Part shown: one piece after another, positions 634-36,800 of the stretch | Position numbering within the stretch: the stretch's first letter is position 1 | How the letters are laid out: every line of letters starts with the position of its first letter | Virus genome (UHGV): UHGV-1456322 | DNA length: 43,927 nucleotides | Reading direction: 5' to 3' (one strand) | From: a virus | Notes under the pieces: generated by a model | What the model was told of the DNA's origin: nothing | The model's database searches: none | The model's input: only the letters and a program-made list of their open reading frames with translations | Position numbers and translations under genes: made by a program

Positions 634-1653
634 TTAGGACTTGGTGGTGAAGGTGAACTTGGTCACTGCAGCGGTGTCCGGACGACGCAGACCGATGTTG
701 TACATTGCGTAGCAGTCCAGCACGTTGCTGAACTCTCGCTCATCATCCCAGATACGGGAGGTGAACGGCTTAGCCTCAACAGTCACCAGGGTCTTGGACT
801 TGCTGAAAGTCACCATACGGCACAGCGCGTCGTCAGGGGTGACGGCGTAAGCGGAGCCCAGCGGGTGCGTACCAGCAGCGGTCGGGAACTCGGTGCACTC
901 AACTACAGGCACACCGTTCATCTTCACTACACGTCGGTCTTTGTAACCATCATTGTTGGACGCGCCGAAGTCCAGGTTCAGGAGCTTCGGATGCTCCAGC
1001 AGACGCGAATAGGTATCGACGTCCACCAGGGTAATCATGTCCGCCAGCGGGGTCTTACGCTTGATGAGTTCGTCAATACCAGCCTTGTGGGCCAGGTTGA
1101 TGTTCATGGCGTTCGCCTCCATCTCAGCCTGGGTCAGCTGAGTGGCGGTGGTGGTACCCGGAACCAGGATAGCTGCGCCTACCTCGATACCGTCGTTGAA
1201 CGCCGGTTTCAGGTGCGCCGGCGCAACCCAGGAACGGCCCTTGATGAGCTGAATCAGGTGCGCCTGGTCGAAGACCTCTGCGAACTCAGAGCCGTTGTTC
1301 TGACCCATCTCGGTCAGGAAGTCCGGACCGGTCCAGTCATCCTGATAGTCAATCGGGTTACGGATATACAGCACCGTATCCACCACGATAATCATCTTAT
1401 CGTTACGGACCGGAGTGCTATCCAGCGCCTCACCGGAGCGACGACCTTTCACCGAGGAGGTGTTCAGTCGGTCAATACGGTAGGTGTTGGAACCGCTGAT
1501 AGAGCGCTGGCTGGAGAGGCCCAGGAATAGAGCCCGGTACTGGAAGCGGGTATCCACTTCGTTCTGGTACACTTCCAGGTGAACGTCTACGTCGGAGTCT
1601 GCGCCGCCCCAGTGCGGACGAGTCAGGTTGCCATTATAAATAGTGTTGGCCAT
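634..1653 (-). CDS. major capsid protein (T7 gp10-like)
   Basis: 339 aa, size and position after scaffold gene; sequence pattern resembles T7-group capsid proteins from memory; AAGGAAA RBS. Confidence 0.85.
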   Translation of the reverse strand: MANTIYNGNLTRPHWGGADSDVDVHLEVYQNEVDTRFQYRALFLGLSSQRSISGSNTYRIDRLNTSSVKGRRSGEALDSTPVRNDKMIIVVDTVLYIRNPIDYQDDWTGPDFLTEMGQNNGSEFAEVFDQAHLIQLIKGRSWVAPAHLKPAFNDGIEVGAAILVPGTTTATQLTQAEMEANAMNINLAHKAGIDELIKRKTPLADMITLVDVDTYSRLLEHPKLLNLDFGASNNDGYKDRRVVKMNGVPVVECTEFPTAAGTHPLGSAYAVTPDDALCRMVTFSKSKTLVTVEAKPFTSRIWDDEREFSNVLDCYAMYNIGLRRPDTAAVTKFTFTTKS

Positions 1654-4841: not shown

Positions 4842-4860
4842 TCCTACTCCTGTAACATTA
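4840..4860 (-). promoter_or_regulatory. candidate phage RNAP promoter (minus-strand TAATGTTACAGGAGTAGGA)
   Basis: Exact 16-mer CCTACTCCTGTAACAT (plus strand) shared with 26339-26354 and 36777-36792; located just downstream of RNAP gene. Confidence 0.45.
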
Positions 4861-13740: not shown

Positions 13741-13962
13741 CTATTCCACGATAAGCTTGTACTCCCCCGGGAAGAAGGTAACACCATCCCCCGGTCTACT
13801 TACTACTAGTCCAGGATAACTTAGTTCTATCTCCCCAGTAACCGGGTCGAAGAACATAACCGTGTGCCTCGTACCCGGGGCGAAGTATGCTGCATACCGC
13901 GGGTCTATCGGCTCAGGCCCCAGGTCCATCAACTCCACAACACTGCCAGACTTTATACTCAT
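13741..13962 (-). CDS. hypothetical protein (73 aa)
   Basis: Start overlaps DNA polymerase stop (ATGA). Confidence 0.45.
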   Translation of the reverse strand: MSIKSGSVVELMDLGPEPIDPRYAAYFAPGTRHTVMFFDPVTGEIELSYPGLVVSRPGDGVTFFPGEYKLIVE

Positions 13963-16373
13963 TCTACCTTCTCCTTACTGTACATACTCGTACCCATCTC
14001 AGCCTCTGCTGGGAACGGGACCTCACCAATGATGCCGTAGTTAGGCCAGAGCTGGTGAATACGCTTAGGTGCATCCTCCATGCACTGCTTAACCAGCAGG
14101 CTCGCCTCACGTCCAACCTCCGGGTTGGCGCTGTCCAGATACAACGCATCGTGCACGTTCGTAATCAGGCACACCTGATTGTCGAACCAGTCACGGGCCA
14201 GGAGTGCACGCAGAACCATACCGGCAGCTACCGCCATCAGGAAGAATGCTTCCCCCTGGCACCAGTAGTTAGCCATCTCTGTTTCCTTGTAGTCCATTAC
14301 CTTCTGCTTACGCTGCCCAGGCACAACCTCTTTCCACTGCTCCTTCTGGCGGAAGCTATAGCGGGCACCTGCTGGGCTAGTCCACGTCCCGATGCGGTAG
14401 ACTCGGTAGCTGCCATCGTCAGCCTGCTCGCGGTACATGCGCCCGGCTGCCCCGGTGCGCTCTACTTCTTCCTTGATAACAGCGCGGAAGCCAATTGTTT
14501 GCGGGAACAGCGCAGCCTCGTTGTCCAAGAAAGCCTGTGCGAATTCCACCGTACATCCAGTAGCAAACGCAATCCCCTTAGCCGTAGCGCCATACTGGGC
14601 TGCGAAGCTAGGAGCCTTAATACCTGTACGCATTGCCTTCCAAAGCGGATGCAGCTCGTGCTTCTTGTTGTGGCAGCGCTCATACACTTCTTCATACGGC
14701 AGTTCCTCGCGGAAAGCTAGGCGGTAACAGTGCATATCCGTGCCGCCCTGCAGCAGCCCCAGTAGTTTGGTGTCCCCCGTATGCACACAGGACATAACCA
14801 CTTCCAGCGCCGAGTAGTCAACCTCAGTGATGCGTCCGTTATCCCCGAATCGGCTGGTGAATACCTGCTTCACCTTGGATTTAGCTACCCCATCCCCGTC
14901 TTCATCCGGTCGGGGTAGGTTCTGCAGGTTCGGGTTAGAGCTACTCAGGCGCCCGGTTACGGTGGCGCATGTATTCAGTCGGTGGTGTATGATGCCAGAA
15001 CCATCAGGACGCTCAGGGATTACGTACTGTAACATACCCTTCCGCTCTTTGACTTTACCCTCTGCGTCCAGAACTTCACGCAAGTAGTAAGTTCCAGTGT
15101 CCTTCTCCAGCGCCGCCAGCTCATTCACCAACTTACAGAACTCGAACCCTTGGCGGGCTAGCGCCTCCATTGCGTCAGTGCTGGTGCTGTATACTGGCGT
15201 ACCGTCCTGCATGGTGCGCGCCTGTCGGAACTCTCCACGCTCTGCATACTTCTCCCGGATAACTTCCGGCAGCTCCTGTATGTTCACTAGGCCCGGGCAG
15301 AAGTAAAGGTCATCTTCCCACCTTAGCTTCTCCTCCTCGGTGTCTAGGCGGAATACTTTGGGTAGCCCCTTGTTCTTACCCGCACGATATGTCACTACAC
15401 GCCACCATCCGCCTTCCGTTTGAAGTTCTTGCATGTGCGTGTCGTGTACAGGTATATAGGTGTGCGCACCCTCTCCGTCCTCGTACTTATAGAAGTCGGC
15501 CTTGACGTACTGCGGCGGGTCATATGGCACCTTCTTGCGGTACTTGATAGGCCCGCCGTACACCAGTGCTGACATATGGAAGTCCGACCCGAAGTTGAAA
15601 TCTAGCGTCTCTGGTAAGTCCTTCGGGATGTACTGCTGCAGTTCCTGCTTAATCTCACGGATGCGCTGCTCCTGCTCCTCCTGGTTCTTGCGTGCAATTG
15701 GCATATTAACGAACAGGCCGAACCATTCGCAGTACGCCCAAGCCAGCAAGGCATCCATACGCTCCCACACGTACTGCATCTGATTGCGCTGGGCGAACGT
15801 AGCGCACTGGCCGTAGAAGCACAGGGCCGTGTTCGGGATGTCCCCGTTAACCAGGTAGTCATGCAGCAGCATCGGGTCAATCTGGGAAGTTAGCACACCC
15901 TGCTCCCACAGAAGCTTAACCCCGTCTACTTTGTGCGTACCACCGTACTTAGGAGCCGTCTCGTCCAGCGACGGATACATGCTCTGAAAGTCCGAGGCGA
16001 TGTATTCCCCATGCATTGTGCAGAACACCCTGCCGCCGCGCTTGAGGAAGGCCTCAAACTGCTGCCGCTGGTACGTGAGAAACCAAGAAATCTCATAGGC
16101 TGCGTTGTGCGCAACAATAAGCCAGCAATCCTCTGGGATATGAAACCACCGGCAGCCTTCTGCTGCACTGTTTCCCGCCAAGAAATCAGCTCTTGAATTG
16201 AAGCGCACCGATTGAGTCGCGCCAACAGTGGTAGTACCGTCAGCCTGTGTCGTGTCGATACGCCATGCGGACTCAACAACATAGTTGTCAGGGCAGTATG
16301 GGCTTGCTTTAGAGCCGTAATATTCATGGTTTTGAACCTCTAAATCTATGTGCATTATACTGGTTGTTGACAA
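13959..16373 (-). CDS. DNA polymerase (family A, T7 gp5-like) with 3-5 exonuclease domain
   Basis: 804 aa; N-terminal HIDLE exo motif; pol motifs TGRLSSSNPNLQNLP, KAPSFAAQYG, VHDAL. Confidence 0.95.
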   Translation of the reverse strand: MSTTSIMHIDLEVQNHEYYGSKASPYCPDNYVVESAWRIDTTQADGTTTVGATQSVRFNSRADFLAGNSAAEGCRWFHIPEDCWLIVAHNAAYEISWFLTYQRQQFEAFLKRGGRVFCTMHGEYIASDFQSMYPSLDETAPKYGGTHKVDGVKLLWEQGVLTSQIDPMLLHDYLVNGDIPNTALCFYGQCATFAQRNQMQYVWERMDALLAWAYCEWFGLFVNMPIARKNQEEQEQRIREIKQELQQYIPKDLPETLDFNFGSDFHMSALVYGGPIKYRKKVPYDPPQYVKADFYKYEDGEGAHTYIPVHDTHMQELQTEGGWWRVVTYRAGKNKGLPKVFRLDTEEEKLRWEDDLYFCPGLVNIQELPEVIREKYAERGEFRQARTMQDGTPVYSTSTDAMEALARQGFEFCKLVNELAALEKDTGTYYLREVLDAEGKVKERKGMLQYVIPERPDGSGIIHHRLNTCATVTGRLSSSNPNLQNLPRPDEDGDGVAKSKVKQVFTSRFGDNGRITEVDYSALEVVMSCVHTGDTKLLGLLQGGTDMHCYRLAFREELPYEEVYERCHNKKHELHPLWKAMRTGIKAPSFAAQYGATAKGIAFATGCTVEFAQAFLDNEAALFPQTIGFRAVIKEEVERTGAAGRMYREQADDGSYRVYRIGTWTSPAGARYSFRQKEQWKEVVPGQRKQKVMDYKETEMANYWCQGEAFFLMAVAAGMVLRALLARDWFDNQVCLITNVHDALYLDSANPEVGREASLLVKQCMEDAPKRIHQLWPNYGIIGEVPFPAEAEMGTSMYSKEKVE

Positions 16374-16851: not shown

Positions 16852-18132
16852 TCACCGGTTAATCTGGCCCTCGTCAAAGCGGCAACGACCCGGCTCGAAT
16901 CCCACCTCGAATTGCAGTAGCGACTCTTTACCAGACAGTGCCATCTTGTTCTTCGGAGTACTGATACCACGGACGTTTTGCATGTGCGGCTGCTCGTTTC
17001 TGTCCAAGCATCCCATCATAATAGCCAAGTCCAGGGCACCCTGTACGCCAATCTTGCTCTGCTTCATAGCGGTGAGCGGCGGGAACAGCATGTTGTAACC
17101 TTCGAGTGAAAGCTGCATAGTGCCTACAATAGCGCAGTCGTTCTCGCACCCAAGTATGCGCAGCTCCTGCCATTTCGCCTCGAGGTTCTGGTGCTCGGTC
17201 TCCATAGTGCCGCCACGGATGTTCGCCACCATGTCGATGATGATTACCGCAGGGCGCATCTCCTCCATGAGCGTGGATATCTGCGCCATCGTCAAGGAGT
17301 GCGCAGCCTTAACACGAATCCGGTCAGCCCTGCCTACTTTCTTGAGGTAGGCTGGCACGAACTCTTGCTTACTGTGCCTGTCCTTAATCTCTGCCAGAGT
17401 CCAGTGCAGCGCCGCTTGATATACCCTCGGCACCGTACGCGTCGCCGGACCCTCGTTAACCAGCCAGAGAATCGGGCGGCCCCCGTATACTTCCGGCTGC
17501 TGCTGCATCTGCTCAGCAAAGTCCACAGCAATAGCAGCAAGCAGGCTAGTTTTACCAGAGTCCACAGGGGCAGCCACTGCGATGCAGTCCCCGCCGCGTA
17601 GGCCCCGGATGTTGCTAGAGAGTTGCTCGAACACGCCCAGTTTAAGACCGCCGCTCTCGTCAGTCGCGGCAAGTATTTCGTCAACACTACCGCTCTCCCA
17701 TTCAAGCAGCGAATCATGCACCGCAGCGCCGTCACCGTACTTGCGCTGTAGGTGCTTCATTTCCAGCAGGTAATCAATCTCCTCACCGTCTTGGTAGCGC
17801 TGCGTCAGCGCTGCTACCTCCCCGCTGTAGGCCAGCTCATTCAGGGTCTGGACAATCCCCACCACAGAATCCTGCGGCACGGCTTGTACTCCCCGCATAA
17901 GCTCGTCCATGATTACCCGCTCTTCCCGGGATAGGTGCCCCGCCCGGAGGTTGAGCATGCTCTGCATCGCATCCCATCGCACCTCCTGGTGCTCCGGGTA
18001 CGTGTTCCAGTACAGCCCCACCCAGTCCAGAAGGTTCGACGTATCCGGCGCAAGCATCGACTTAGGAATCTGCTCTCGCAGTCGGTTCCAAACCTTCTGC
18101 GTGCACATTGCCTTAACAACTATTAGGTCCAA
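16852..18132 (-). CDS. DNA helicase (DnaB-like, T7 gp4 helicase-domain-like)
   Basis: 426 aa; Walker A AAPVDSGKTS; position after primase. Confidence 0.85.
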   Translation of the reverse strand: MDLIVVKAMCTQKVWNRLREQIPKSMLAPDTSNLLDWVGLYWNTYPEHQEVRWDAMQSMLNLRAGHLSREERVIMDELMRGVQAVPQDSVVGIVQTLNELAYSGEVAALTQRYQDGEEIDYLLEMKHLQRKYGDGAAVHDSLLEWESGSVDEILAATDESGGLKLGVFEQLSSNIRGLRGGDCIAVAAPVDSGKTSLLAAIAVDFAEQMQQQPEVYGGRPILWLVNEGPATRTVPRVYQAALHWTLAEIKDRHSKQEFVPAYLKKVGRADRIRVKAAHSLTMAQISTLMEEMRPAVIIIDMVANIRGGTMETEHQNLEAKWQELRILGCENDCAIVGTMQLSLEGYNMLFPPLTAMKQSKIGVQGALDLAIMMGCLDRNEQPHMQNVRGISTPKNKMALSGKESLLQFEVGFEPGRCRFDEGQINR

Positions 18133-19542: not shown

Positions 19543-20589
19543 TTAACCCTCCACAATATTATCGTATCCACCCCAGTCTTCTACGACTCGGGTGCCTAAT
19601 TCAATCAGTTCTTCTTTAAAGCCGTAATCGGAGAACACCATTATGTACTCCGCCGCCTTCTCTGGATTCTCCTGCACCCAGCTAACCAGTTGTTGTTTAG
19701 AAAGCTGCGACACTACACGGAACGCTGCCAGCAATTGCGGGTCCTCGTCTGGCGGCATATCCCATGGCTGCCGTAAACTGAGCGTCGATGCTGAGAGCCA
19801 TTGGTCCGGCTCTACTACCTTCGGGTCCCGCTCAATCGGAAGGTGCGAGAACGTACCATCTTGCAGTACCCGCTCAAGCACTTTCCCCAGGATGTTCAGG
19901 TCCAGCACCTCATCCGGAGTGTGCTCGTGCATGTACCCTACACCGACGTTGGTGCACTCAGGGATGATGCCGACGAACTCGGCTGAGTCAGTATACACAC
20001 CCTTTTGTAAGTGCTGCTCCGTGCGTCCTAGGCGCTCTGCCAGAGTCTTGGCAAAGGTATCAGAGCAGCAGCGCATGTACCGCTGGTGCGTAATGATACC
20101 ATCTCCGCGGCGGTCAAAGCTAATCATCGCCTTGACACCAGTCCAAAATCCAGTGTCATCCTTGACCGATGCAGCGCTGCCTTCGCAGCCAACCTCCTCA
20201 TCCACGAAGAAGCAGTAGCGTCCGTGCACACCCCGCCGCAGCATCTCCAGCATCAGGTAGACACCGGCACCGCAGTCCGCCCCCAAGCAGTCAGCTTGTT
20301 GCGGATTCTTTACGAACAGCACGCCCTTGTTAGTGCAACCGACGTCCGGTGCAGCGCTGGTTGGGCGGGCCACCGTATCGAGATGAGACGTAAACGCTAC
20401 ATCACTTTGCTCTGAGTCCCCCACCAGCACGAAGTAGTTCCCGTGCTTATCCTTTACGTAGTGCATACCACTACCCAGCGCCTGCATAAGCAGCGGATCG
20501 AACCACTTAGTGCTTGCCCAGCTAGGCCGGTGCGTTCGCAGTATCTGCAAGAGCAGCTGCATATCAATCCCATGCGGATTCAAGAACAT
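19543..20589 (-). CDS. zinc metallopeptidase-like protein (clan MH, M20/M28-like)
   Basis: 348 aa; ordered motifs FTSHLDTV (H-x-D), GADCGAG (Asp), FFVDEEVG (E-E-x-G), YMHEHT (His) consistent with co-catalytic zinc exopeptidase fold; from memory, unverified. Confidence 0.55.
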   Translation of the reverse strand: MFLNPHGIDMQLLLQILRTHRPSWASTKWFDPLLMQALGSGMHYVKDKHGNYFVLVGDSEQSDVAFTSHLDTVARPTSAAPDVGCTNKGVLFVKNPQQADCLGADCGAGVYLMLEMLRRGVHGRYCFFVDEEVGCEGSAASVKDDTGFWTGVKAMISFDRRGDGIITHQRYMRCCSDTFAKTLAERLGRTEQHLQKGVYTDSAEFVGIIPECTNVGVGYMHEHTPDEVLDLNILGKVLERVLQDGTFSHLPIERDPKVVEPDQWLSASTLSLRQPWDMPPDEDPQLLAAFRVVSQLSKQQLVSWVQENPEKAAEYIMVFSDYGFKEELIELGTRVVEDWGGYDNIVEG

Positions 20590-22265
20590 TAAGCTGCCTC
20601 CTCTGCTTCTTCTTCATCTTCATCGTTTCCCAGGTACTTCTCTCCCAAGCAATCAGCTGCATGCTCAGTGAGAATTAACCCGTGCACTGGGTGTTCTTCT
20701 GCGTGTTCAATAAGCACTTGCCGGTCCTGTGCAAACACCAGTTCCTCTTGGTCGTGCACTACACCCTCTACTTCGCAGCGCTCTATGTCCTCGTCGTATA
20801 CATAGGCGTCGTGGTAATCAGACCAGGTGCAGCTCCAGCGATTATGCAGACCATCACGCCCAACTACGTACACAAAATCCCCTTCTTCTACGCAGCCGTC
20901 GCAGACCATATCACCATCTGCGGTCTCCTGCATGTCATCTACAGAGTAGCGACATTCACAGCAGCAGCACCCAGCAGACTCAGTGCCTACGTAGATGTAT
21001 CCTTCTGAGTCTTGTGCCTCGTACTCATAAGCATCACGGATTACAAAGGCATCATCCCCATACTCATCTACGCCGCACTGGCTGCTATCTAGGTATGGCA
21101 TCAGCACTGCGCCGTTGTATGTTGGGTGCGGTATTCGCGCCAGCATTACCCCTTCGAGACACTCAATGTTTTTGGTGTACCCATGCCCCCGCAGGATTGC
21201 ATCCGCAGCGTCGCCGTAAGCGCGGACGTACTCGTTAGTTTCTGTGTTAACGATTGCCCGTGCCTGCACTTCGAAGTCATCCCCGAACAGTTCCCCGGTG
21301 TACTGGATGAACAGGCGCAGCCCGTTGTCCGGCAGCCCGTGGCTGGTAGTAGCATACACCCGCACCGGGCTATGCTCAAATGAGTATCCACTCATGCAGC
21401 TACCCGGGCCATTCTCGTAGGAGTCGTACCATTCCTGCTCGGTCTTGCACAGGTACGTTGTAGGCTCTACGTTCATAGCCTTGAGGTCTTCGATAGCATC
21501 GCGGAAGTCTACGCCATTGCCGTAGTAGTTAGCGAGCCACTTACCTACGCGCATCTCCACACAACGGTACTCGGTAACTGCGGCGAAGTCCTTGTGCATC
21601 CGCGGCTGCCCCAGCATCACGATAGGCTCACCGTTGCGGAAACCAAAGCCCAATGGCACGGCGAATCTAGATACTATGAATCCGTGCAACTTCATGAGCA
21701 GCGCAGCTAAGTTGCCATCGCGGGCGTGGCGGCCGTAATCGTAGCCAGTGCATAAGCGGCGCTGCTGCTCTTCTGGTGCAAGCATGATGCGCTCAAATAA
21801 CTGCACGGCCTGCTTGTGCACCTTGTAACCTGTGAATTCTTCGACGCAAGCAACTACGCGCTCAACCACTACATCCTCGCCCTCATAGAAGTCGCGGCGG
21901 CGTTCCCAGAACTTGCTGTCTATGGTGATTCGCACCGGTTCAAAGAGTTCGCAGAAAGTTCCGGACCGGTACAGGTCCACCTTTTGCAACGGGCCGAGCG
22001 TCATCGTTGATTCGCGATACTCTGGGTGCAGTGCCCCGCCTATAGTCACCTCTAAGCCTGGAGTGTGCGCACTGACAGTGCGGAGACCCATAAGCACCTG
22101 CAGCGGACCCTCAGTGTGGGGATGGTCCTCCCCTTGCATTTGCAAGTCCTGGAACGGGGTCCAGTAATCACCGCTGGAATACATTGATTCTTTAATCGGC
22201 AGTGCGTTTGCACCTTCCGGTAATACGATTTTCCATTCGATAGGTGCTGTGTTAGTCTCTTGCAT
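20589..22265 (-). CDS. large uncharacterised early protein (~558 aa) with C-terminal Cys cluster and acidic tail
   Basis: Track ORF 20589..22646 trimmed to ATG at 22263-22265 (AGGGG RBS) because the 5-prime extension overlaps the 114-aa gene; contains GCCCCECR ... CDGC and terminal DEDEEEAEEAA. Confidence 0.5.
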   Translation of the reverse strand: MQETNTAPIEWKIVLPEGANALPIKESMYSSGDYWTPFQDLQMQGEDHPHTEGPLQVLMGLRTVSAHTPGLEVTIGGALHPEYRESTMTLGPLQKVDLYRSGTFCELFEPVRITIDSKFWERRRDFYEGEDVVVERVVACVEEFTGYKVHKQAVQLFERIMLAPEEQQRRLCTGYDYGRHARDGNLAALLMKLHGFIVSRFAVPLGFGFRNGEPIVMLGQPRMHKDFAAVTEYRCVEMRVGKWLANYYGNGVDFRDAIEDLKAMNVEPTTYLCKTEQEWYDSYENGPGSCMSGYSFEHSPVRVYATTSHGLPDNGLRLFIQYTGELFGDDFEVQARAIVNTETNEYVRAYGDAADAILRGHGYTKNIECLEGVMLARIPHPTYNGAVLMPYLDSSQCGVDEYGDDAFVIRDAYEYEAQDSEGYIYVGTESAGCCCCECRYSVDDMQETADGDMVCDGCVEEGDFVYVVGRDGLHNRWSCTWSDYHDAYVYDEDIERCEVEGVVHDQEELVFAQDRQVLIEHAEEHPVHGLILTEHAADCLGEKYLGNDEDEEEAEEAA

Positions 22266-22314
22266 TTTAGTTTGCCCCTGAATAGGTTCTTTGAGTTCAT
22301 CGCCAACCACTAAG

Positions 22315-22659
22315 TCAGCGTGCGTACCATGCAGCGATCTGCGCTTGCTTATAATATGCCCGTACTGCCGCCCTAAATCTTGTATATGCTCCACGATACC
22401 CGTACCGTAGCAGTGCTGCAACCACATCGAACTGAATGTGCTCTTGCAACTGCCGCGCGGCAGATTCTGTATACTCGCGATAGGTTGTGAGCACCACCGT
22501 AGAGTCCTGCCTACGAACACGGAGGAGTCTGCGCTCGACCGGTATGATTTGCTTGAGTTCATTAGGAACCTCTTTGAATGTTCCCCAAGGGCACCCGCAC
22601 TTGCCCTGCGTTTCCAGCAGCTTCCACATGAAAACAGCAGCTTCATCTACCGTCATCAT
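22315..22659 (-). CDS. hypothetical protein (114 aa)
   Basis: Start overlaps stop of HNH-AP2 gene; N-terminus MMTVDEAA resembles that of the upstream endonuclease. Confidence 0.5.
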   Translation of the reverse strand: MMTVDEAAVFMWKLLETQGKCGCPWGTFKEVPNELKQIIPVERRLLRVRRQDSTVVLTTYREYTESAARQLQEHIQFDVVAALLRYGYRGAYTRFRAAVRAYYKQAQIAAWYAR

Positions 22660-23144
22660 GTGAGCCTCCCAGTAGGAGTGGTTGGGTGCAGCCTAGCTTT
22701 AGCCGCTAAGTATGCTTCGCGGGCTTCATTTTCTGTGGGGTACACCCCAAGATACATCTGCTTCCCGTTTGCTGCTATGCGGGCCATGTATCCTCCTCGA
22801 AATGGGTAATACCCCTTCGCCTCTCGGTTGTGGTTATTGATTAGGGCAGTGGTCGCGCGGAGGTTTTCAGGACGATTATCATCCCGCTGCCCGTTGATAT
22901 GGTCAACTACTGGTGGAAAGTACCCGTTGGTAAGGGCGAAAACCACCCTATGAGCTTTTAAGTCCCGGCCCCGAAGCATTCCGTGGTAGTAGCCCCCGTT
23001 ACTCTTGCTTGTGAACGCTTCCGCTCCAACCGGTGTGCGTGCTCTAGGTGCTTTCTTCCAACGCAAACCAGTGGTCGAGGTGGCGTCGACGTAGAGATAT
23101 TCCTGAATCAAGCACAGCAGCGCTGTTTCGTCTACTGTGAGCAT
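22656..23144 (-). CDS. HNH homing endonuclease with AP2-type DNA-binding domain
   Basis: 162 aa; VVDHINGQRDDNRPENLR (HNH_3-like) followed by YLGVYPTENEAREAY (AP2-like); AAGGA RBS. Confidence 0.8.
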   Translation of the reverse strand: MLTVDETALLCLIQEYLYVDATSTTGLRWKKAPRARTPVGAEAFTSKSNGGYYHGMLRGRDLKAHRVVFALTNGYFPPVVDHINGQRDDNRPENLRATTALINNHNREAKGYYPFRGGYMARIAANGKQMYLGVYPTENEAREAYLAAKARLHPTTPTGRLT

Positions 23145-23341
23145 ACGCTGTCCTTGAATACCACGTTGCGGGCCAGCAGGGACGACTTGGGACTGGACAC
23201 CAGATCCCCCACCTTTAGCGCAGACTTAACCCACACATTGCTATGGGGAGCAAAGAGTTCCGCCCGAGTATGGAACATGTCGTGTATCGCCACTCGGTAG
23301 AACAGCCCGTTCGGGCGCTTGTACACGTCATACTTAATCAT
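23132..23341 (-). CDS. hypothetical protein (69 aa)
   Basis: AAGGGG RBS; early region. Confidence 0.4.
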   Translation of the reverse strand: MIKYDVYKRPNGLFYRVAIHDMFHTRAELFAPHSNVWVKSALKVGDLVSSPKSSLLARNVVFKDSVCSQ

Positions 23342-23517
23342 ACTACACCCCTTACATTAAACCGTAAGCAGTAACCGCGCAGAGTCATACCCAGGCGCTT
23401 TGCTTGTTTCTCATAGTGCTGGCGCAGTGCTGCCTTCGCGTTGTACTCCCGCGCCAGCCCTTCGATTGTTGGTTGCTGCCTACGCATTAGCAGCGTCTCA
23501 GGATTCTTTCCGTGCAT
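23338..23517 (-). CDS. hypothetical protein (~59 aa)
   Basis: Track ORF begins at TTG; first ATG at 23515-23517 has GAGG RBS. Confidence 0.4.
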   Translation of the reverse strand: MHGKNPETLLMRRQQPTIEGLAREYNAKAALRQHYEKQAKRLGMTLRGYCLRFNVRGVV

Positions 23518-23525
23518 GCCCAACC

Positions 23526-23789
23526 TCAAATATCGCTGTTGCTCTTACTGTCCACCGTAAGCGTAACGGCGGCGTCCGGGTACTGCTCCTGCACCGCGGC
23601 AAGAATACGCGCGCCTAGCTCTTTGCAGCCGCCCTCGGGGTCTTCAAAGAGGTCATACTCAGGGCGCGGCTGCGGTTCCTGCGTTGCGGGTTGCTGCAAC
23701 TGCACTGTGCAGTATGGGATTGGGTTGTTTACGTCGTTGCCCAGCACCAGCATAGCGCTGGTCACAATGATGTTGAATACATTAACCAT
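23526..23789 (-). CDS. hypothetical protein (~88 aa), hydrophobic N-terminus and acidic C-terminus
   Basis: Track ORF 23526..23975 trimmed to ATG with GGAGA RBS; upstream part is low-complexity and overlaps another gene. Confidence 0.4.
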   Translation of the reverse strand: MVNVFNIIVTSAMLVLGNDVNNPIPYCTVQLQQPATQEPQPRPEYDLFEDPEGGCKELGARILAAVQEQYPDAAVTLTVDSKSNSDI

Positions 23790-24003
23790 ATAGTTGTCTC
23801 CAATCGGCGATGATGCCAAGATTAACGGCGTCCAGCACAGTGCGGGCAGCCATTTCGGTGTAGGTATCCACAAATTCGAATGGGGATTCCTGATTGGTGT
23901 CTTTGTCAGAGAATATAACCACAGTGTAGTTGTATTCGTCGTACTTGCGATTGCACCACACGGGCCAGGGTTCATGACCCGGATAAACCAGTATTGCTTT
24001 CAT
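23782..24003 (-). CDS. hypothetical protein (~73 aa), acidic
   Basis: GAGGTGG RBS before second in-frame ATG; preceded by conserved hairpin element. Confidence 0.45.
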   Translation of the reverse strand: MKAILVYPGHEPWPVWCNRKYDEYNYTVVIFSDKDTNQESPFEFVDTYTEMAARTVLDAVNLGIIADWRQLYG

Positions 24004-24027
24004 ATGCCACCTCATACGCCAGTTGCA

Positions 24028-24059
24028 TTCACATAGCGTCCCGTAGGACGCTATAGGCT
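24028..24059 (-). promoter_or_regulatory. conserved 32-bp element with 9-bp inverted repeat (copy A)
   Basis: TTCACATAGCGTCCCGTAGGACGCTATAGGCT; 28/32 identical to copy B; stem ATAGCGTCC / GGACGCTAT. Confidence 0.4.
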
Positions 24060-24192
24060 TGCCACTAGAGATACTCGCCCAATCCCTCGTACACCCATTT
24101 TTGAGCTATTGCCCGCACAGGGATATCGAAAGCGTCGGCATCGTTGGCCGCAGGGCACAAGGCCCACCACTTGATAACCGGAACTTTATAAA

Positions 24193-24777
24193 TCATGCCG
24201 CTGCCTTCAAAGTTGCGTCCAGTACAGCGCGTACGTCCACGCCTTGCGATACCAGCATAGACACGAGGTCAGCATCGCTTACGCCAGTCTCTTTAGCCTT
24301 CTTAATAGCGTTTTTAACGCGCCCCAGCGCTTGCAGGCGCACTGCATCGGCATCCAGTGCGTCATTCTTCACCTGCTCTGCTTCGGCGGCGTACAGGGCC
24401 ATACAGGAGCTATAAAACCTCGCTACGATTACTTCGCGGCCTTGCTTGTCAGCTTGTTTGTAGTCCAGACGCATAGTGTCCAGTTCGATACCCAGCTTTT
24501 CAGCCGACACATAGCACTTCTTAGCGTTGAACCCATATTTGCCGGACTCCTTGTTGAGCTTGATAGGCAACAGCGTACGCAGCACCATATCGAAGTCAGC
24601 GGCATCGCTACGCTGCATATCCGTAGCCCATGATACGTTGCTGCTAATCAGGCCGTGGAAGAGCGCGCTGATAGTGATGTTACGCTTTGCTTCCACTACG
24701 TCGCCCAGCGCTTTACGAATGCTGCCAGCAGCGGTGAGCTTGAATACTTTACCTGTTGAATTGGTGGAATTAGTCAT
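24193..24777 (-). CDS. hypothetical early protein (~194 aa)
   Basis: Track ORF 24193..24828 trimmed to ATG with AAAGGGGTG RBS; preceded by conserved hairpin element copy B. Confidence 0.5.
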   Translation of the reverse strand: MTNSTNSTGKVFKLTAAGSIRKALGDVVEAKRNITISALFHGLISSNVSWATDMQRSDAADFDMVLRTLLPIKLNKESGKYGFNAKKCYVSAEKLGIELDTMRLDYKQADKQGREVIVARFYSSCMALYAAEAEQVKNDALDADAVRLQALGRVKNAIKKAKETGVSDADLVSMLVSQGVDVRAVLDATLKAAA

Positions 24778-24815
24778 AATGCACCCCTTTGATTGGTTGT
24801 TTACTTTACGAATTA

Positions 24816-24847
24816 CTTCACATAGCACCCCATAGGATGCTATAGGC
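24816..24847 (-). promoter_or_regulatory. conserved 32-bp element with 9-bp inverted repeat (copy B)
   Basis: TTCACATAGCACCCCATAGGATGCTATAGGCT; hairpin with one G-U pair when transcribed from the minus strand. Confidence 0.4.
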
Positions 24848-24852
24848 TGTAA

Positions 24853-25050
24853 TTAGTGTCCGAACTGTGCATTCATAGTAGACCACCCCGAAGGTTGTTT
24901 ACTGCCAGCACGTTGCTTTTGCTTACCTCTCACCCTGTGCTCACAGCTCAGGCCTTGTTTACTTGGCTTCACAGTGAGTGGCACGTTGTCGGTGGGATTC
25001 AGTGATAACTGCATATTCCGCCGTAAAGCTAAACGCTTTGCTTTGCGCAT
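24853..25050 (-). CDS. hypothetical basic early protein (65 aa)
   Basis: First RBS-supported ORF (GAGAGG) downstream of the sigma70 early promoters. Confidence 0.4.
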   Translation of the reverse strand: MRKAKRLALRRNMQLSLNPTDNVPLTVKPSKQGLSCEHRVRGKQKQRAGSKQPSGWSTMNAQFGH

Positions 25051-25299
25051 AATCTTCTTACCTCTCAGAGAACATAATCTAGCGCAGCCTTGTTACTGCT
25101 ACGCTATGTTATATGCTCTTTGCGGGATACACTCCGCGCCTTGTTCCCTCGATTCAGAGGAGCGAGCTGCTCTCGCCTCGACAGTGTGGTTTGTCTCAGA
25201 ACCCCGGTGATAACGTCCGGCACGCTTACTACTATCATGTATCTAGGGTTAGTGGTCAGAGCACCTTTAGGCGCTACACTGCTCCGCAACATGGTTCAA

Positions 25300-25328
25300 A
25301 CTATAAAAGCGTTTACTGCTATTGTCAA
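25300..25328 (-). promoter_or_regulatory. sigma70-type early promoter (TTGACA - 17 bp - TATAGT)
   Basis: Minus strand: -35 TTGACA (25323-25328), 17-bp spacer, -10 TATAGT (25300-25305); AT-rich upstream region. Confidence 0.55.
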
Positions 25329-25424
25329 TACCTGTTTTTCATATGACTTATCAGGCTGTCTACTTATCCAGTTGACTCTGGAATCTAGAGCTACCCGGTA
25401 GACCGTATCGCTTTCGATGGGATA

Positions 25425-25453
25425 AATATACACCTAGCAGATTTAAAAAAGCA
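25425..25453 (-). promoter_or_regulatory. possible second sigma70 promoter (TTGCTT - 17 bp - TATATT)
   Basis: Minus strand -35 TTGCTT, 17-bp spacer, -10 TATATT; weaker match. Confidence 0.3.
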
Positions 25454-25466
25454 AGCACTTTTTATA

Positions 25467-25509
25467 AAAAAAAAAAAGGTAATACAGCATTTATAGTACT
25501 GTATTACCT
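25467..25509 (-). terminator. rho-independent terminator (10-bp stem, 11-nt loop, T12 tract)
   Basis: Minus strand GGTAATACAG-(loop)-CTGTATTACC followed by 12 T; directly downstream of the 25515-26069 gene. Confidence 0.7.
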
Positions 25510-25514
25510 CAAGT

Positions 25515-26069
25515 TTATGCCTTTAGCCACCCCAACGGCTCCGTGAATAGCAGCCTGTTACACTTATGTGTATTAAGCGTTGCGGGTATCACCTGAATGT
25601 TCCCCGCACAGTGTAAGCCGCACACCTCTTTAGCCTTTAGCGGTAGCATATGGTCAATATGCCACGCTATGCCAGTACACTCCGCCCTCTCGGCTGCTAA
25701 AGCGATAGCCTCCAACATAACAAACTCACCCCACTCGCCATACCATGAGGGTACGGATTGAGTACGCGCAGCACGGTATCGCGCATTGTGGCGAACCTTA
25801 CGCTGTAATTGCTCCTCTGTCATAATGTGCTTAGGTCGGCGTGTCTTACGGTACTCTCTCAAGGCCTCTGCCTTACGTACCTGATAAACCTTATGGTACC
25901 CCCGCATACGCTCCTTAGTAGCTGGGCTGGTACTCCTAATCTTAAAGCACTCGGAGCACTCCCCTGAACTGGTGAGGCGCTTTGCCGTGTGCTGGTACTT
26001 ACAGTGCTTCCCTGTGTAGTAGTATGTACTACCAGTGGCTTTAGCCGTAGCCCGACTAGATGGTAACAT
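25515..26069 (-). CDS. HNH / endonuclease VII-like nuclease (~184 aa)
   Basis: Track ORF 25515..26138 trimmed to ATG with AAGGAG RBS; CSEC zinc motif plus HIDHMLPL ... GLHCAGN ... N His-Me finger pattern. Confidence 0.55.
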   Translation of the reverse strand: MLPSSRATAKATGSTYYYTGKHCKYQHTAKRLTSSGECSECFKIRSTSPATKERMRGYHKVYQVRKAEALREYRKTRRPKHIMTEEQLQRKVRHNARYRAARTQSVPSWYGEWGEFVMLEAIALAAERAECTGIAWHIDHMLPLKAKEVCGLHCAGNIQVIPATLNTHKCNRLLFTEPLGWLKA

Positions 26070-26074
26070 GTATA

Positions 26075-26945
26075 ACTCCTTATATATTATAGGGATAGCC
26101 ACTAGGGATAGCACTGTGCTGACACTGGCTGTAGCCAATACTAGCCACGTCTAGCCAATACTATCTAATACTACATAAAGCAGAACGTAGTGACGTAACG
26201 TAAGTGAAGGAACGTAGTGATGCGGTGACTATGTAGTTATGGCAGCCTACTACGTAGGCACAGGGCCATACTAGTGAGTGCCTAGTAGGGACTAGTAAGG
26301 ACTAGTATTAAGTAGTGTATATAGTGCCCTAAAACCCTCCTACTCCTGTAACATCATTTCATAATAGCTTTCGAATGAAAGTAAGAGCAAAGGGATAGCG
26401 CTGGATAGTGCGGTGTGGTGGATGTGCGCCCTAGTGGGGAGCGCGCAGCGTAGCACATAATTAGCACAATGTAAAGCACTAAGGATAGCCAGTGGATAGC
26501 CTAGTGCACACTCGGGATAGCACCAGGCATACCCTATGGCCCCACTGCGCGGGCACTAGACAGGCACTAGGCAGACCCACTGAGGCGCACAAAATAAGCA
26601 AGGCAGAGCACGCCCCTATGGCCCACAGAGAGCGCACAGAGAGCGCACAGGAAGCGCCCTAGTGAACGCACAGTGATAGCCATAGGGTAGCACTGGCAAT
26701 AGCCTTAGAGCGCAGCACAGGCCCGCTGAGGCGCTCTAGTGCGCACTAGCAGGCCCCACCAGTGCCCCCCCCCCTAAATTGACGCTAGGCACCCCCCTAT
26801 GGGGGCAATTGGGCGCGTTGAGGGTGAGGGAGGGGCTCGCGTGAGTCTAATAAATTTCAGGTCCAGGTATAGACGCGCACCCCAGCAGCACCCCAGCAGT
26901 GCCCCGGGATACCGTAGAGATACCCCAGGGAAGCTCTAGAGCTAC
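26075..26945. repeat. non-coding repeat-rich region, candidate genome terminus / terminal-repeat region
   Basis: About 870 bp without ORFs; many distinct 2-copy tandem short repeats (AGGGATAGCCACT, TAGCCAATACTA, ACGTAGTGA, GGACTAGTA, GGATAGCC x3, CACAGAGAGCG, CACCCCAGCAG), C10 tract, GC palindromes. Confidence 0.5.
26337..26357 (-). promoter_or_regulatory. candidate phage RNAP promoter copy (GATGTTACAGGAGTAGGAGG)
   Basis: Exact 16-mer shared with 4843-4858 and 36777-36792. Confidence 0.4.
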
Positions 26946-28901
26946 TTAGAGATACACCTCCCAGGCTACCTGGGATACGTCCGCTGCGTTACTGCTCCTA
27001 ATCACGAAGCTGTTTAGGTCCGGATTAGGTGTAGGCACATCCTGGTTCTGAGCTACGCCAGTAACCGTCAAGGCCCCAGCACTAGAGGGAAAGGTCAACC
27101 GCGTCAACTTAACCTCAGACACCCACTTGAAGGAGTTAGCTACGCTGCCAAAGTTTCCGCGTACACGGGCGTTGACTGTAGCCTCACCAGCCACCAGGGT
27201 TGCCACTCCACGGATACCCGTGTCATCCAGTAAGTTCATGGACATGCGCGGGGGCGTAGGTTGAACGGCGTAGCCGCTCAGCAATGCCCAGAACAAGCCG
27301 TGACCGGTCATGTCGTTATTGGACATAGATACCAGGGTAGGGTCAATGCCCATAGTCCCGTGGAAGTACACAGCTCTCCCGGTACCGTCGTAGCGCATGC
27401 TCACGCCATCAATCTCCAGGGATGTCTGCGCTGTCTCAGCTACGTCCTTAGTAACGAAGATGTGAGAGCTGGAGTTGCGGGTGTACCGACCACCCTTAAC
27501 ACGGCCCCCGTTGATTCGCACACCATTCTGGCTACCGTGAGCCTCGCAGTCATAAACGTAGCCACCGCCGTACGAGCAGTTAAAGCCAGAGCGTACGTTG
27601 TCATAAGCTAGGCACTCCCTATAGATAGGGAAGGCTACACCGGTGTTGGAGGCGAACCCGTCCATAGCTGCACGGTAAGCTCGACAGTTCAAGTACTCTA
27701 CCCCGTTAGTGCGCGCTTGGAACCCATCGTCAGCACTGTCGTACGAAACGCATCGAACGAACTTCACACGCTTACCAATGTCATGAGTATCAAACCCAGC
27801 TTGGGTTGTGTTGTAGGCTTCGCAGTTAACGCCTAAGAACTCGATAGGCTCTCCCCACTTGTCCCCGTCTGCGGTGCTCTGCCAGTTCAGAGAGATTGCG
27901 TGGCGTACGTCCATGGCGTGGATATCGTGTACTTCCGTGTCCTCTGAGCAGCCGAGCACTTCTACCCCATACCATCCGATGTTGTAGAAGTACGTACCCT
28001 TAACAGTACTATCTACGCAGTTATTGAACTTGATAGCACTACGCCCTTCTATATCAGAAGCCCCGGGGCGTTTGTTGCCAATAATAACCCCGTCCTGGAT
28101 GTGCAAGTCCGCGGCAAAGTTGGCAGAGATACCGATAGTAAAGAACCGGTTCAAATCGTCGTAGCCGAACTCGTTGATGTACGGGGATACTAAGGTTACG
28201 TTCTCCACCATTGTCGGGATACCTACTTCCGCGGCATCAGACAGGTAGTAGTTATAGTGCAGCGCTTTATCCAGCCGAATACTGGTGACGCCACCGGAGG
28301 TGCTAACCCCAACCACTTTCCTAATCTGGGAAATCTTTACACCGTACGTGTTAGGACCACCATCACACAGCTTGTTAGAGCGAAGATACAAGTACGTACC
28401 TTTTACCGCAGACAAAGCCCCGGCAGCCACCGTAATGACTTTGCTGCCCGCCGCGGCATCCGCTGCTAACGGTACGAACACCGAGGGTGCCGAGCCGATA
28501 ATATTAAGCACTTGACGTGCAACCGCAGCATCCGGTAGGATTCTTCCGGTATCGGTAAACTCTAGCGTAGAGTTGCTTTTGATGTTGAGCACACTCGTGG
28601 CCTGCAGGACCGTGTCCACAACCAGGTGCCTATTAGGTGCGCTCATGAACGTTACTATGCCCGCCCAATTGCTGAACCAGGAGCTGTATGCCGGACCCAC
28701 GAATTTACGGAGTAGATACCCACCAGGTACAGCAAACACAGTTCCGTTATCCACTACCGACGCGGCAGTAGTAAAGGTGAAGTCCCCACCGGCGCTGCCC
28801 AGCAGGCTAATCTTGTCCCGTACCTGAAAGTTTGGATATGCTACCATGCTCGCCAAGTCGGAGAATACCCGCTCTGGAGCTACTAATCTAATTAACGCCA
28901 T
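26946..28901 (-). CDS. tailspike protein, probable polysaccharide depolymerase (beta-helix)
   Basis: 651 aa; no T7 gp17-like N-terminal anchor; repetitive Gly/Asn/Val-rich segments typical of right-handed beta-helix tailspikes; last gene before genome-end region. Confidence 0.8.
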   Translation of the reverse strand: MALIRLVAPERVFSDLASMVAYPNFQVRDKISLLGSAGGDFTFTTAASVVDNGTVFAVPGGYLLRKFVGPAYSSWFSNWAGIVTFMSAPNRHLVVDTVLQATSVLNIKSNSTLEFTDTGRILPDAAVARQVLNIIGSAPSVFVPLAADAAAGSKVITVAAGALSAVKGTYLYLRSNKLCDGGPNTYGVKISQIRKVVGVSTSGGVTSIRLDKALHYNYYLSDAAEVGIPTMVENVTLVSPYINEFGYDDLNRFFTIGISANFAADLHIQDGVIIGNKRPGASDIEGRSAIKFNNCVDSTVKGTYFYNIGWYGVEVLGCSEDTEVHDIHAMDVRHAISLNWQSTADGDKWGEPIEFLGVNCEAYNTTQAGFDTHDIGKRVKFVRCVSYDSADDGFQARTNGVEYLNCRAYRAAMDGFASNTGVAFPIYRECLAYDNVRSGFNCSYGGGYVYDCEAHGSQNGVRINGGRVKGGRYTRNSSSHIFVTKDVAETAQTSLEIDGVSMRYDGTGRAVYFHGTMGIDPTLVSMSNNDMTGHGLFWALLSGYAVQPTPPRMSMNLLDDTGIRGVATLVAGEATVNARVRGNFGSVANSFKWVSEVKLTRLTFPSSAGALTVTGVAQNQDVPTPNPDLNSFVIRSSNAADVSQVAWEVYL

Positions 28902-33838: not shown

Positions 33839-36800
33839 TTAATCGTCTCCGAAGTTATTGATGATAGCTCGCGTAGGTGCGAATTCCTGGATTAACGGCA
33901 CCTGCTTAGTGAAGGTCTTGATATCCATATTACCGGTAGCCAGGTCCTGCACAGCCCCAAGTAGTCCTGTGACGTAACCCATAGATGCCAATGAGTGACG
34001 GGGAGAATCCCCCAGGAAGATATCCTGTAGTAAGGATACACCGCCAATGGCACTCATACCCATCACGGACTCACCGATGAGTTTCTGGGTGTCTACGTCC
34101 CCCCCATCCATACCGTGCTTAGCCATAGTAGCCAGTAGCATCAGCGGGAATTGATACGCCATAATATGGGCTACGCCAATCCACCCAGCGTCGTTCAGCT
34201 CCCTACGCAGAATCTTGTTAGTGGCGGCCAGTGCGAAGCTCTGGTACCCTACAATGACTTTGCCGATAGGGTTGAACTGTGCAAAGTGTGAGGTCTCTCC
34301 AGTACGAACCTGCTGTACCAGGTAGTCCATCATACGCGTCCCTACAACCTCAACTTGCATTTGCAGGTCCGGCTGGAACATGGCGCCCGGGTTGGCTTTG
34401 TTGGCAGCGACGGCACGGTCAGCAATGTCGCGGGTAAGCCCGAAACGCTCCAGACGCTTAAACGCCGCAGCATCACCCTTGAACATCTGGGTAAGCTCAT
34501 CCGCCACAATGCCGGAGTTCAGGTTAACCTGCAGCCGGTGCACCATGCTCATACCGTTGACGTGACGCGCAGCCTGCCCAACGTTCTGGGTTACATTGAA
34601 CCAAGAGGCCTGACGGGTCAGGTCCAGGTTATCGTCGGCGTACGTATTCAACCAGCGGAAGCGCATCTCCTTCTGGATATTACCTCGCAGTACAGTGTCT
34701 AGACGGGTAGCCATATCCGGAGTCTTGATAGCTACGGCACCTTCCTTGAACCAAGGCTGGTCGCGCATACTACGCAGCACTCTAGCCATACCGAACTCCT
34801 TCATAGCCAGGGCAGTGTCAGTCAGCTGATACAGGCCGGAGTTCTTAAGCATGGTGGCGTTAGCCATGTTCCCGGCTGCACGCAGCAAATCCGGAAGCTG
34901 TCCGGCGTCAGCAGGCGCCCCACCCAGGATAAAGTCGATGGTGTCATTGACTGTCTTCTCCCACTTAGCGGAATCCGCCAGTGCGTGCTTAGACTCATCA
35001 ATCATCTTAGCTAGCTGGCCCAGGCCCTGTACGCCTGCATAGGCCATGCCTACACGCCCAGACATACGGTTAGTGTACCCGTGCATAACCTTGGCTACAT
35101 CAGTATCCATCAGGTCCTGCATGCGCATGCTCTTACCGTTCACCAGATACTCTTTGTCCATGTTGAACCGAGTACGCTGACGCAGGTTCCGCGCAGGGGA
35201 CGTGCTACCGGATTCGCGTACGTTACCAGCCAGGAAACTCTGGATTGCAGATTCATCTACACCAGCGCTACGCATAGCCATAACGACCTCGTCGTTACCC
35301 ATGCCGTTAATCAGCTGCTTCCACATCGGGCCGGACTGCCCTGCACGGCCGTTGTAGATACCGTCAACCATCTCCTTTGCAACACGCTGCACTACCTCTG
35401 ACTCCATGCTCGGGTACACGTCCCGCAGGGCGGACCTGAACAGGGCGCGGTAGTCGTCCAGAGTGTTACCCTGCGCAATACCTTGGCGCATCTTGTCGTA
35501 GCTGTACTGACGCGGGAAGTAGTAATCGGATTTAACCAACGCACCATCATCCACCAGACCAGCATTGAGCATATGCTCGTGCCACTTGCCTGCCCAGCCA
35601 GAGCGGCGATAGGCGTCAACCAGTGGGGCAATCTCTACATCCGGTACGGGAACAGCTCGGCCGTTTACATCAGCACTGTAGGCAGCATCCAGGTACTTGC
35701 TCAGGCGGTCTTCCAGTGCAGCCCGCTCAGCGCGGAACTTGCTCCGATGGAAGAAGCGCTCAGAGAAACCTACACCCTTATCCTTCAACGCGCCCAGGAT
35801 AGCGTCTTCCACTACGCTAGCGCTGGCGTCCATCTCCAAAGTGAGGTTGCGCTTGAAGTCCACTACAGACGGGCGACGGCCGCCTACTGCGGACGCATCC
35901 GACACTAGCAGTTTAGCCAAGTCTTCATTGCCTTGAGCGATGTTATCGTACAGGGCAAACATAGTAGAGAGCTTCTTCTTAGCGCCATCCAGCATAGCTT
36001 GGGCACCCTTAGCCTCGTTTAGGGTAGTGCTGCCCGCCAGGTCCTGGAAGGCTTCACTACGGAAGCTCTGGGCTTGGTCTGCATAATCCTTAGCTGTCCA
36101 CTTAACGGCGTCCTCGTACGCATCCAAGACATCTTCCAAGGCAGAACCTTTGGCCTTGATGCCCAGGGCATTCATGATGTACTCGCCCAGTTGGCGGAGC
36201 ATGCTCTTACCGGTTGGGGATTTCGTCCGCGCCAGATGCTCAACCCACTCAGGGCTGTCACCTAAGCCTGCCAGCATCTCGTGCACATTACTAGCGTAAT
36301 ACCGCATACGCGGCGTCAAGGTGGAGTCCGCTGCAATAACAGCGCGCACTTCATCCAGGCGCTTAGCAATCTCTGGGTTACTGTCAACGGCGCGCGCAGT
36401 GGCGGCATGAATCAGTTCGTGCACGGCTACCCTGCTTGTGTCTGCATCCATAGCACGCAGTGCGTCCCCTGCTGTAGTCCATGTGCTGCCATTAGCTCGC
36501 GTAGGTGCGCGTAGAGACACCTCTCCACGCTTAGCTAAATCTTGCTGTGCGTAAGTGTAGCGGCTGCGGTTTGCGGAGCCTGCTACCAGTTTAAAATCAA
36601 TGTCATTTACAGCATCGCCCAGCGTGTCCAGAATAGCCTTCTGGCCTGCTGTTAAGTGTTCGGACTTCTTCAAGAACTGAACTACGTGCTGTGCTTTCAT
36701 GTTCACGGAGGCGGTATTGTTTCTAGATACTTGGATGCTTTCATCCAGTGTCTTAGTAAGGATTTCCTCTCCCTCTCCTACTCCTGTAACATTAGCGTCC

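Follow-up and report, generated by a model that had tools for sequence, protein, structure and literature searches.

The stretch of DNA analysed here, the 43,927-nucleotide (nt) virus genome UHGV-1456322 (hereafter, the window), represents the complete genome, circularly permuted and about 44 kb long, of a KP34-like podovirus of Klebsiella (Drulisvirus), and all of its genes lie on the minus strand. We describe a cluster of small genes in it, here named gA to gE (positions 23526 to 25050), the promoter in front of them, and two RNA hairpins that lie between the genes. In a megablast search, the region 23300-25300 matched 245 GenBank phage records, 231 of which belong to Klebsiella phages, with 95 to 96% identity for the best; one annotated relative of this region is classified as Autographivirales, Slopekvirinae, Drulisvirus. 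The features of the operon, in the order of transcription, are as follows.

25328-25300, minus strand: sigma-70-type early promoter, TTGACA-17-TATAGT (consensus scan, 11/12 matches)
25051-25293, minus strand: non-coding leader of 243 nt, in which open reading frames (ORFs) fall in different frames in different phages
24853-25050, minus strand: gA, 65 amino acids (aa), isoelectric point (pI) 11.9, 22% Lys plus Arg; GAGAGG-N10-ATG; phrog_32970
24808-24857, minus strand: two-stem RNA hairpin, copy 1, UAUG loop, minimum free energy -18.7 kcal/mol, z-score -3.0; gA stop codon in the 5' arm
24193-24777, minus strand: gB, 194 aa, pI 9.15; AGGGG-N8-ATG; phrog_5277
24065-24196, minus strand: gC, 43 aa, start overlapping the gB stop (ATGA); annotated in relatives; phrog_10968
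24019-24068, minus strand: two-stem RNA hairpin, copy 2, UACG loop, minimum free energy -26.9 kcal/mol, z-score -5.0; gC stop codon in the 5' arm
23782-24003, minus strand: gD, 73 aa, acidic, pI 4.5; GAGGTG-N6-ATG; phrog_7657
23526-23789, minus strand: gE, 87 aa, acidic, pI 4.05; GGAG-N9-ATG; phrog_7036; start overlapping the gD end by 8 nt
23338-23517, minus strand: gF, 59 aa, basic; Pfam DUF7267 (E 2.5e-26), phrog_5136; continuation of the operon
23132-23341, minus strand: gG, 69 aa, basic; phrog_7916; more variable than any other gene of the operon
22656-23144, minus strand: HNH_3/AP2 homing endonuclease gene, inserted in the operon between gG and gH; at this position only in the related locus L030
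22315-22659, minus strand: gH, 114 aa, basic; phrog_6167; also conserved in distant relatives; last gene of the small-gene cluster

Promoter and genes of the early cluster

An initial annotation, made from the sequence alone, had listed four ORFs behind ribosome-binding sites (65, about 194, 73 and 88 aa). All four are present, each with a Shine-Dalgarno sequence 6 to 10 nt before its ATG, and the 65-aa and 73-aa products are basic and acidic, respectively, as had been stated; the last product, gE, is 87 aa long, the count of 88 having included the stop codon. A fifth gene, gC, had been overlooked between gB and gD, and the tightly packed operon does not end at gE but runs on to 22315, through gF, gG, the HNH gene and gH. 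When called mechanically, the gB ORF begins at a GTG at 24828 and encodes 211 aa; its relatives measure 190 to 195 aa.

The same annotation had placed "sigma70 promoters" directly upstream of these genes. A host-type promoter is indeed found there, although as a single strong site in the consensus scan rather than several, and with the non-coding leader in between, so that gA starts about 250 nt downstream. The same promoter module is present in four related loci (L013, L014, L033 and L051). The positions of the main genes of the genome were assigned by PHROG scans of the window, with the following result.

26946-28901, minus strand: tail fibre
19543-20589, minus strand: peptidase
16852-18132, minus strand: helicase
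13959-16373, minus strand: DNA polymerase
4866-7334, minus strand: phage RNA polymerase
634-1653, minus strand: major head protein

In this layout, the gA-gE cluster occupies the left end of the genetic map, and the gene for the phage RNA polymerase lies about 18 kb downstream of it. The sigma-70 site and this distance bear out the view that these are early genes behind a host-type promoter.

For comparison, we assembled 51 related loci (L001-L051), 49 of which were fetched from IMG/VR with the gB profile and two of which are annotated GenBank loci. Intact orthologues of the cluster ORFs, with preserved lengths, exist in 39 to 51 of the 51 loci. The ratios of nonsynonymous to synonymous substitutions (dN/dS; pairwise Nei-Gojobori) are low, at 0.09 for gA, 0.09 for gB, 0.21 for gC, 0.20 for gD and 0.11 for gE, with 0.20 for gF, 0.45 for gG and 0.15 for gH. 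Thus, the cluster ORFs are protein-coding and evolve under purifying selection; they recur in related loci, where a lack of conservation had been named as grounds for discarding the cluster. Within the 41 Drulisvirus loci, gB, gF, gG and gH are present in all, gD in 40, gE in 39 and gC in 29, which is also the count of gC among all 51 loci, and gA can be detected in 38. The distant loci L040-L049 have recognisable copies only of gB, gF, gH and sometimes gE.

Intercistronic RNA hairpins

A 32-nt motif, AGCCTATAGCGTCCTACGGGGCGCTATGTGAA, occurs twice in the cluster (24817-24848 and 24028-24059, minus strand), and each copy is the core of a larger two-stem hairpin. The hairpins begin at the gA and gC stop codons and end 25 to 40 nt before the next start codon. 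They share one architecture, in which a lower stem of 7 to 9 base pairs, a conserved 4x4 internal loop (AGCC/UGAA) and an upper stem of 10 base pairs are closed by a variable tetraloop. Hairpins of this kind also exist in 44 of the 51 related loci (L001-L041, L048, L050 and L051). These loci and the window (45 sources) provided 69 distinct flanked sequences, from which 36 distinct copies with 14-nt flanks were taken for covariation analysis. Pairing holds in 89.8% of the cells of the alignment, compared with 71.8% in shuffled alignments (none of 500 reaches the observed value) and 26 to 46% when the partners are slid. All nine pairs of the lower stem have changed on both sides. Furthermore, the lower stems of three paralogous copies, the third of which is present in some relatives only, are unrelated in sequence but complementary. 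Because two U.G pairs are invariant, the hairpin forms only in the sense RNA. An Rfam scan of 22000-27000 returned no family, and ARAGORN found no tRNA.

Substrates of RNase III typically comprise two helical turns, and an internal loop restricts cleavage to one strand; a single cleavage in the loop leaves a product with a protective 3' hairpin (PMC1540722). The hairpins described here likewise consist of about two helical turns of mostly paired RNA with an internal loop, and they occupy intercistronic positions downstream of a sigma-70 promoter. Because their shape resembles that of the T7 sites (PMC1540722), we read them as putative RNase III-type processing and stabilising sites. A literature search found no transcript-end data for Drulisvirus.

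In an earlier study (Eriksson et al. 2015, PMC4411677, Table 3), the same 32-nt sequence, at the same two early intergenic positions, was put forward as a possible phage-specific promoter in Kp34likevirus; our analysis differs in that the motif is the core of a covarying RNA stem-loop. Promoters of the KP34 RNA polymerase have since been determined experimentally as T(A/G)ATGTTACAGGAGTA (strong) and ACTTTGGACATCCGTCAAGT (weak) (Lu et al. 2019, PMC6834552). In the window, strong copies lie at 4845-4860, 26341-26356 and 36779-36794 and a weak copy at 4894-4913 (all minus strand), in positions equivalent to those of KP34, and none lies within the cluster or overlaps the hairpin motif. Since the promoters used by this polymerase differ from the 32-nt motif in sequence and lie elsewhere in the window, we rejected the motif as a phage promoter.

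The gene directly upstream of hairpin copy 1, gA, bears on another possible function of the hairpins. Its product is small, basic, arginine-rich and likely disordered, and it exists in two alleles across loci L001-L051, one of 65 aa (MRKAKRLALRRN...) and one of 71 aa (MKYREKLAQQF...). These alleles share only the basic C-terminal segment of about 30 aa (VRGKxKxKGSSKxPxGWxTxxxQFGH), which suggests that the N-terminal half is modularly exchanged. If gA bound the hairpins in the manner of lambda N and boxB, it could act as an antiterminator, which would be useful to a host polymerase that must cover about 18 kb before it arrives at the gene for the phage RNA polymerase; the sequence of the upper stem and internal loop is also conserved beyond the needs of pairing, as might be expected for the binding site of a phage regulator or for the promoter proposed in 2015. 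However, covariation and U.G pairs indicate an RNA structure rather than a double-stranded DNA promoter. The tetraloop varies freely (UACG, UAUG, UGCG, CACG, UUCG, UAGU), unlike the boxB loop, and the hairpin is unchanged between the two gA alleles, although these differ completely in their N-terminal halves. Moreover, five loci (L025, L027, L037, L041 and L048) carry hairpins but no detectable gA. On these grounds an N/boxB-like pairing of gA with the hairpin was rejected, and we consider a regulator-binding or promoter role of the hairpins quite improbable.

Protein families, predicted folds and neighbouring elements

No Pfam family was hit by gA to gE, and no cluster protein was hit in NCBIfam or PADLOC scans. 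All five match PHROG profiles over their full length (phrog_32970, 4e-45; phrog_5277, 6e-103; phrog_10968, 6e-33; phrog_7657, 8e-48; phrog_7036, 6e-51), and all of these families are labelled "unknown function". The initial impression that the proteins resemble nothing recognisable therefore holds for Pfam, NCBIfam, PHROGs and PADLOC, where unknown-function PHROGs, and DUF7267 for gF, are the only matches. In a search of 5.8 billion protein clusters, gB, gD and gE were found almost solely on phage contigs of about 43 to 45 kb. A literature search on early genes of KP34 and Drulisvirus found no functional work. All five genes turn up in hundreds of phage genomes, in each case annotated as hypothetical. 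As objects, gA to gE are not new, since PHROGs and GenBank already list them as conserved hypothetical proteins.

The most conserved gene of the cluster is gB, a left-end signature gene of the relatives of KP34, of Pectobacterium phages and of Vibrio phages. By tblastn, it was found in 340 GenBank phages, of which 219 are from Klebsiella, 51 from Pectobacterium and 42 from Vibrio; the remaining hosts are Escherichia, Shigella, Dickeya, Erwinia, Aeromonas and Pantoea. It is annotated as hypothetical in every listed GenBank record and lies near the left end in the records deposited from that end. When 1.84 billion representative proteins were searched exhaustively with a hidden Markov model of gB, only 34 clusters were recovered, nearly all of short proteins (63 to 310 aa); in one long protein, P0248 (1,270 aa), the match is confined to a short repeated segment.

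The AlphaFold2 model of gB is confident (predicted local distance difference test [pLDDT] 87.5, predicted template modelling score 0.69). It describes a basic, mostly helical protein in which an N-terminal helix precedes a beta hairpin (residues 72-83) and a central helix of 53 residues (111-163); two short helices follow at the C terminus. A Foldseek search of BFVD with this model retrieved only uncharacterised podovirus proteins (Aeromonas phage PS, Pectobacterium phage MA2, Vibrio phage VpV262 and Pantoea phage LIMElight), and no PDB relative of gB was found. As a weak lead, a wider gB-family profile aligns locally (gB residues about 68-124, i-E-value 0.013) with the ETS-type winged helix-turn-helix of PU.1; the aligned part of gB comprises the beta hairpin and two helices, and that of PU.1 comprises beta1-beta2-alpha2-alpha3. 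Being confidently modelled, devoid of a known fold and present in phages of at least four host genera, gB is the best experimental target of the cluster.

For gA and gD, no PDB relative was found. The C-terminal helix of gD is invariant (TEMAAR..DAVNLGII.DW). The gD homologue of phage SU503 (P0067, 73 aa) belongs to a UniRef cluster named "DNA topoisomerase II large subunit"; this name is almost certainly an annotation error, since the protein has only 73 aa and no domain hit. In gE, conserved segments of 30 aa at the N terminus and 45 aa at the C terminus flank a Gln-rich linker whose length varies, and two Cys residues are invariant. The AlphaFold2 model of gE (pLDDT 73) shows a compact domain of beta-beta-beta-alpha-beta topology, with a four-stranded sheet and one helix, and has no significant structural similarity to the anti-CRISPR AcrIF5-like fold. 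Residues 4-14 and 24-32 are beta strands in this model, and the N-terminal segment contains Asn, Thr and Ser and has no flanking positive charges. The hydrophobic N terminus is thus predicted to be a buried strand (strand 1) rather than a membrane anchor or helix.

Besides the HNH gene within the operon, a second HNH-type homing endonuclease gene, endonuclease VII-like, lies upstream of the early promoter (25515-26069, minus strand). Both appear to be recent mobile insertions, because each exists at its position in only one or two of the 51 related loci. In nine relatives, an extra DUF987 (YeeT-like) gene is present between gE and gF (L022, 4350-4640, and eight other loci), and unrelated small ORFs are present between gC and gD in other relatives. 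The gE-gF and gC-gD junctions thus have the appearance of insertion hot spots. Among the accessory ORFs at equivalent positions in the relatives, only DUF987, HNH and one HTH_Tnp_1 protein were identified.

The first 52 nt or so of the leader in front of gA (25239-25290, minus strand; GTTGCGGAGCAGTGTAGCGCCTAAAGGTGCTCTGACCACTAACCCTAGATAC), directly after the early transcription start, are conserved in distant relatives too: this element is about 80% identical in L043-L049, whose gB proteins are only about 50% identical. Within Drulisvirus, it is present in only five or six loci, including L013, L014, L033 and L051, and it seems to represent a promoter/leader module that is mobile. Considered as a structured RNA, the leader has a fold z-score of just -1.7, and covariation is weak at its two mini-hairpins. 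The last 55 nt or so (25055-25110, minus strand), just before the gA ribosome-binding site, form a long irregular hairpin (AGAGCAUAUAACAUAGCGUAGC...GCUGCGCUAGAUUAUGUUCUCU) in a single-sequence fold only.

Farther upstream, the strong KP34-type promoter at 26341-26356 is followed by a terminator-like hairpin with a T-run (25476-25510, minus strand). A non-coding stretch of about 600 nt upstream of the early region (26300-26900, minus strand) contains many short repeats (CTAGTG, runs of GGGGCC/GGGGTG, CACTAG, TACGTT) and probably holds the terminal repeat and the genome end.

Operon model, alternatives and comparison with known systems

The reading that we favour, with modest confidence, is that the cluster is a class I (early) operon of a KP34-like podovirus, whose hairpin-processed message encodes small proteins that act by stoichiometric binding. 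Host RNA polymerase would transcribe the translationally coupled small genes as one message from the sigma-70 promoter, and the hairpins would split this message in three (gA, gB-gC, and gD-gE-gF onward). Host RNase III may cut the hairpins as in T7 early mRNA, each upstream piece keeping a protective 3' hairpin. Because the proteins are too small and carry no catalytic or cofactor motifs, we regard them as probable binders rather than enzymes, which would most likely act stoichiometrically on host or phage macromolecules during takeover. It is from the position of the cluster in the genome that a role in host takeover may be ascribed to it. Since gB is conserved across phages of several gammaproteobacterial genera, a conserved process, either cellular or intrinsic to the phage (for example, nucleoid, transcription or replication set-up), would be its most likely target, ahead of any strain-specific defence. 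In this model gB would be the lineage-wide core factor. The basic, disordered gA is confined to the genus and near-core in it, as are gD and gE, which are taken to be small acidic alpha/beta domains and to be translationally coupled.

Several points weigh against the operon model. (i) The view of the proteins as binders was drawn from their size and from absent motifs, and no experiment or homology ties them to a target. (ii) A 4x4 internal loop between stems of 7 and 10 base pairs is compatible with RNase III but is no proof of cleavage. (iii) The upper stem and internal loop are also kept in sequence, so that the hairpin could instead be a site for a sequence-specific binding protein. (iv) Because a KP34-type promoter lies upstream, at 26341-26356, the phage polymerase may transcribe the cluster as well, at a later stage of infection.

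The position of the cluster had led the initial annotation to suggest anti-restriction functions and to propose an analysis of DNA-mimic surface charge. Were gD, gE or both DNA mimics, they would be analogues of T7 Ocr (NC_001604) that block type I restriction-modification or BREX, and their early position directly behind the sigma-70 promoter, their acidic pI and the absence of a conflicting annotation would all agree with this. Nevertheless, Asp and Glu make up 15% of gD and 14% of gE, with net charges per residue of -0.068 and -0.092, whereas the values for Ocr are 29% and -0.24; gD and gE thus fall within the range of ordinary small acidic T7 proteins (gp2, gp1.2). Among the cluster proteins there is no Pfam, PHROG or NCBIfam hit to an anti-restriction family (Ocr, ArdA, KlcA/ArdB), and a phmmer comparison of ten window proteins (eight of the cluster and the two HNH proteins) with 13 T7 early and class II proteins, Ocr (gp0.3) included, gave no hits at E<=10. 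In addition, the gE model is a compact domain rather than an elongated acidic helix bundle, and both genes are near-core in the genus. Because composition, homology and, for gE, the fold all fail to support it, we consider a DNA-mimic function very improbable, and nothing points to restriction-modification as the target. Most known anti-defence proteins come from small early phage proteins, and at least one of gA, gC, gD, gE and gG might inhibit another bacterial immune system (e.g., CRISPR, CBASS, Thoeris, Gabija or retrons) by a mechanism other than mimicry. The two gA alleles and the variable or sporadically absent gC and gG would fit such a role, as would the uptake of cargo by the region (the DUF987 gene and the HNH endonucleases). 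Against it, no cluster protein matches an anti-defence family annotated in PHROGs or Pfam, dN/dS values of 0.1 to 0.3 give no signal of arms-race selection, and gD and gE are present in 39 to 40 of the 41 Drulisvirus loci; we therefore hold this role to be rather unlikely. The near-core status of the cluster in the genus and the spread of gB over phages of Klebsiella, Pectobacterium, Vibrio and Aeromonas argue against a cargo that serves chiefly in strain-specific counter-defence.

Of the candidate therapeutic phages for Klebsiella pneumoniae, drulisviruses are some of those most often isolated, and their whole early region is annotated as "hypothetical". The identification of early proteins for host shutdown or counter-defence would aid host-range prediction and the engineering of therapeutic phages. 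There is a small but appreciable chance that at least one of gA, gD and gE belongs to a new class of inhibitors directed at a Klebsiella immune system, or that gB is a takeover factor of new fold with one conserved host target. In either case, it would be the founding member of a protein family that more than 300 sequenced phages now carry, many therapeutic candidates among them. What our analysis adds is that the expectation of a DNA mimic is removed and that the published "putative phage promoter" is recast as a covariation-supported RNA hairpin, so that the early transcription map is drawn differently.

With regard to known systems, gA to gE belong to the catalogued PHROG families named above, from which we saw no difference, and the cluster is otherwise an ordinary ORFan-rich early region of the kind carried by T7-like podoviruses. 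What is new is the recognition of the "phage promoter" motifs as conserved RNA hairpins with the shape of RNase III cleavage sites, at which the message may be cut. The closest parallel is the class I region of T7 (genes 0.3-0.7, RNase III sites R0.3-R1.3). The two regions differ in that the cluster described here has no sequence similarity to T7 early proteins and in that its operon lacks an Ocr-like hyperacidic protein, a kinase and an RNA polymerase gene, the polymerase being encoded about 18 kb downstream. Both, however, are sigma-70-driven polycistronic early operons at the left end of the genome, and both encode small acidic and basic proteins. The leader hairpin predicted at 25055-25110 occupies the position equivalent to the R0.3 site of T7. 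In both regions, the cistrons are separated by irregular hairpins that span about two helical turns and contain an internal loop (PMC1540722), and those described here may be cleaved in the same way.

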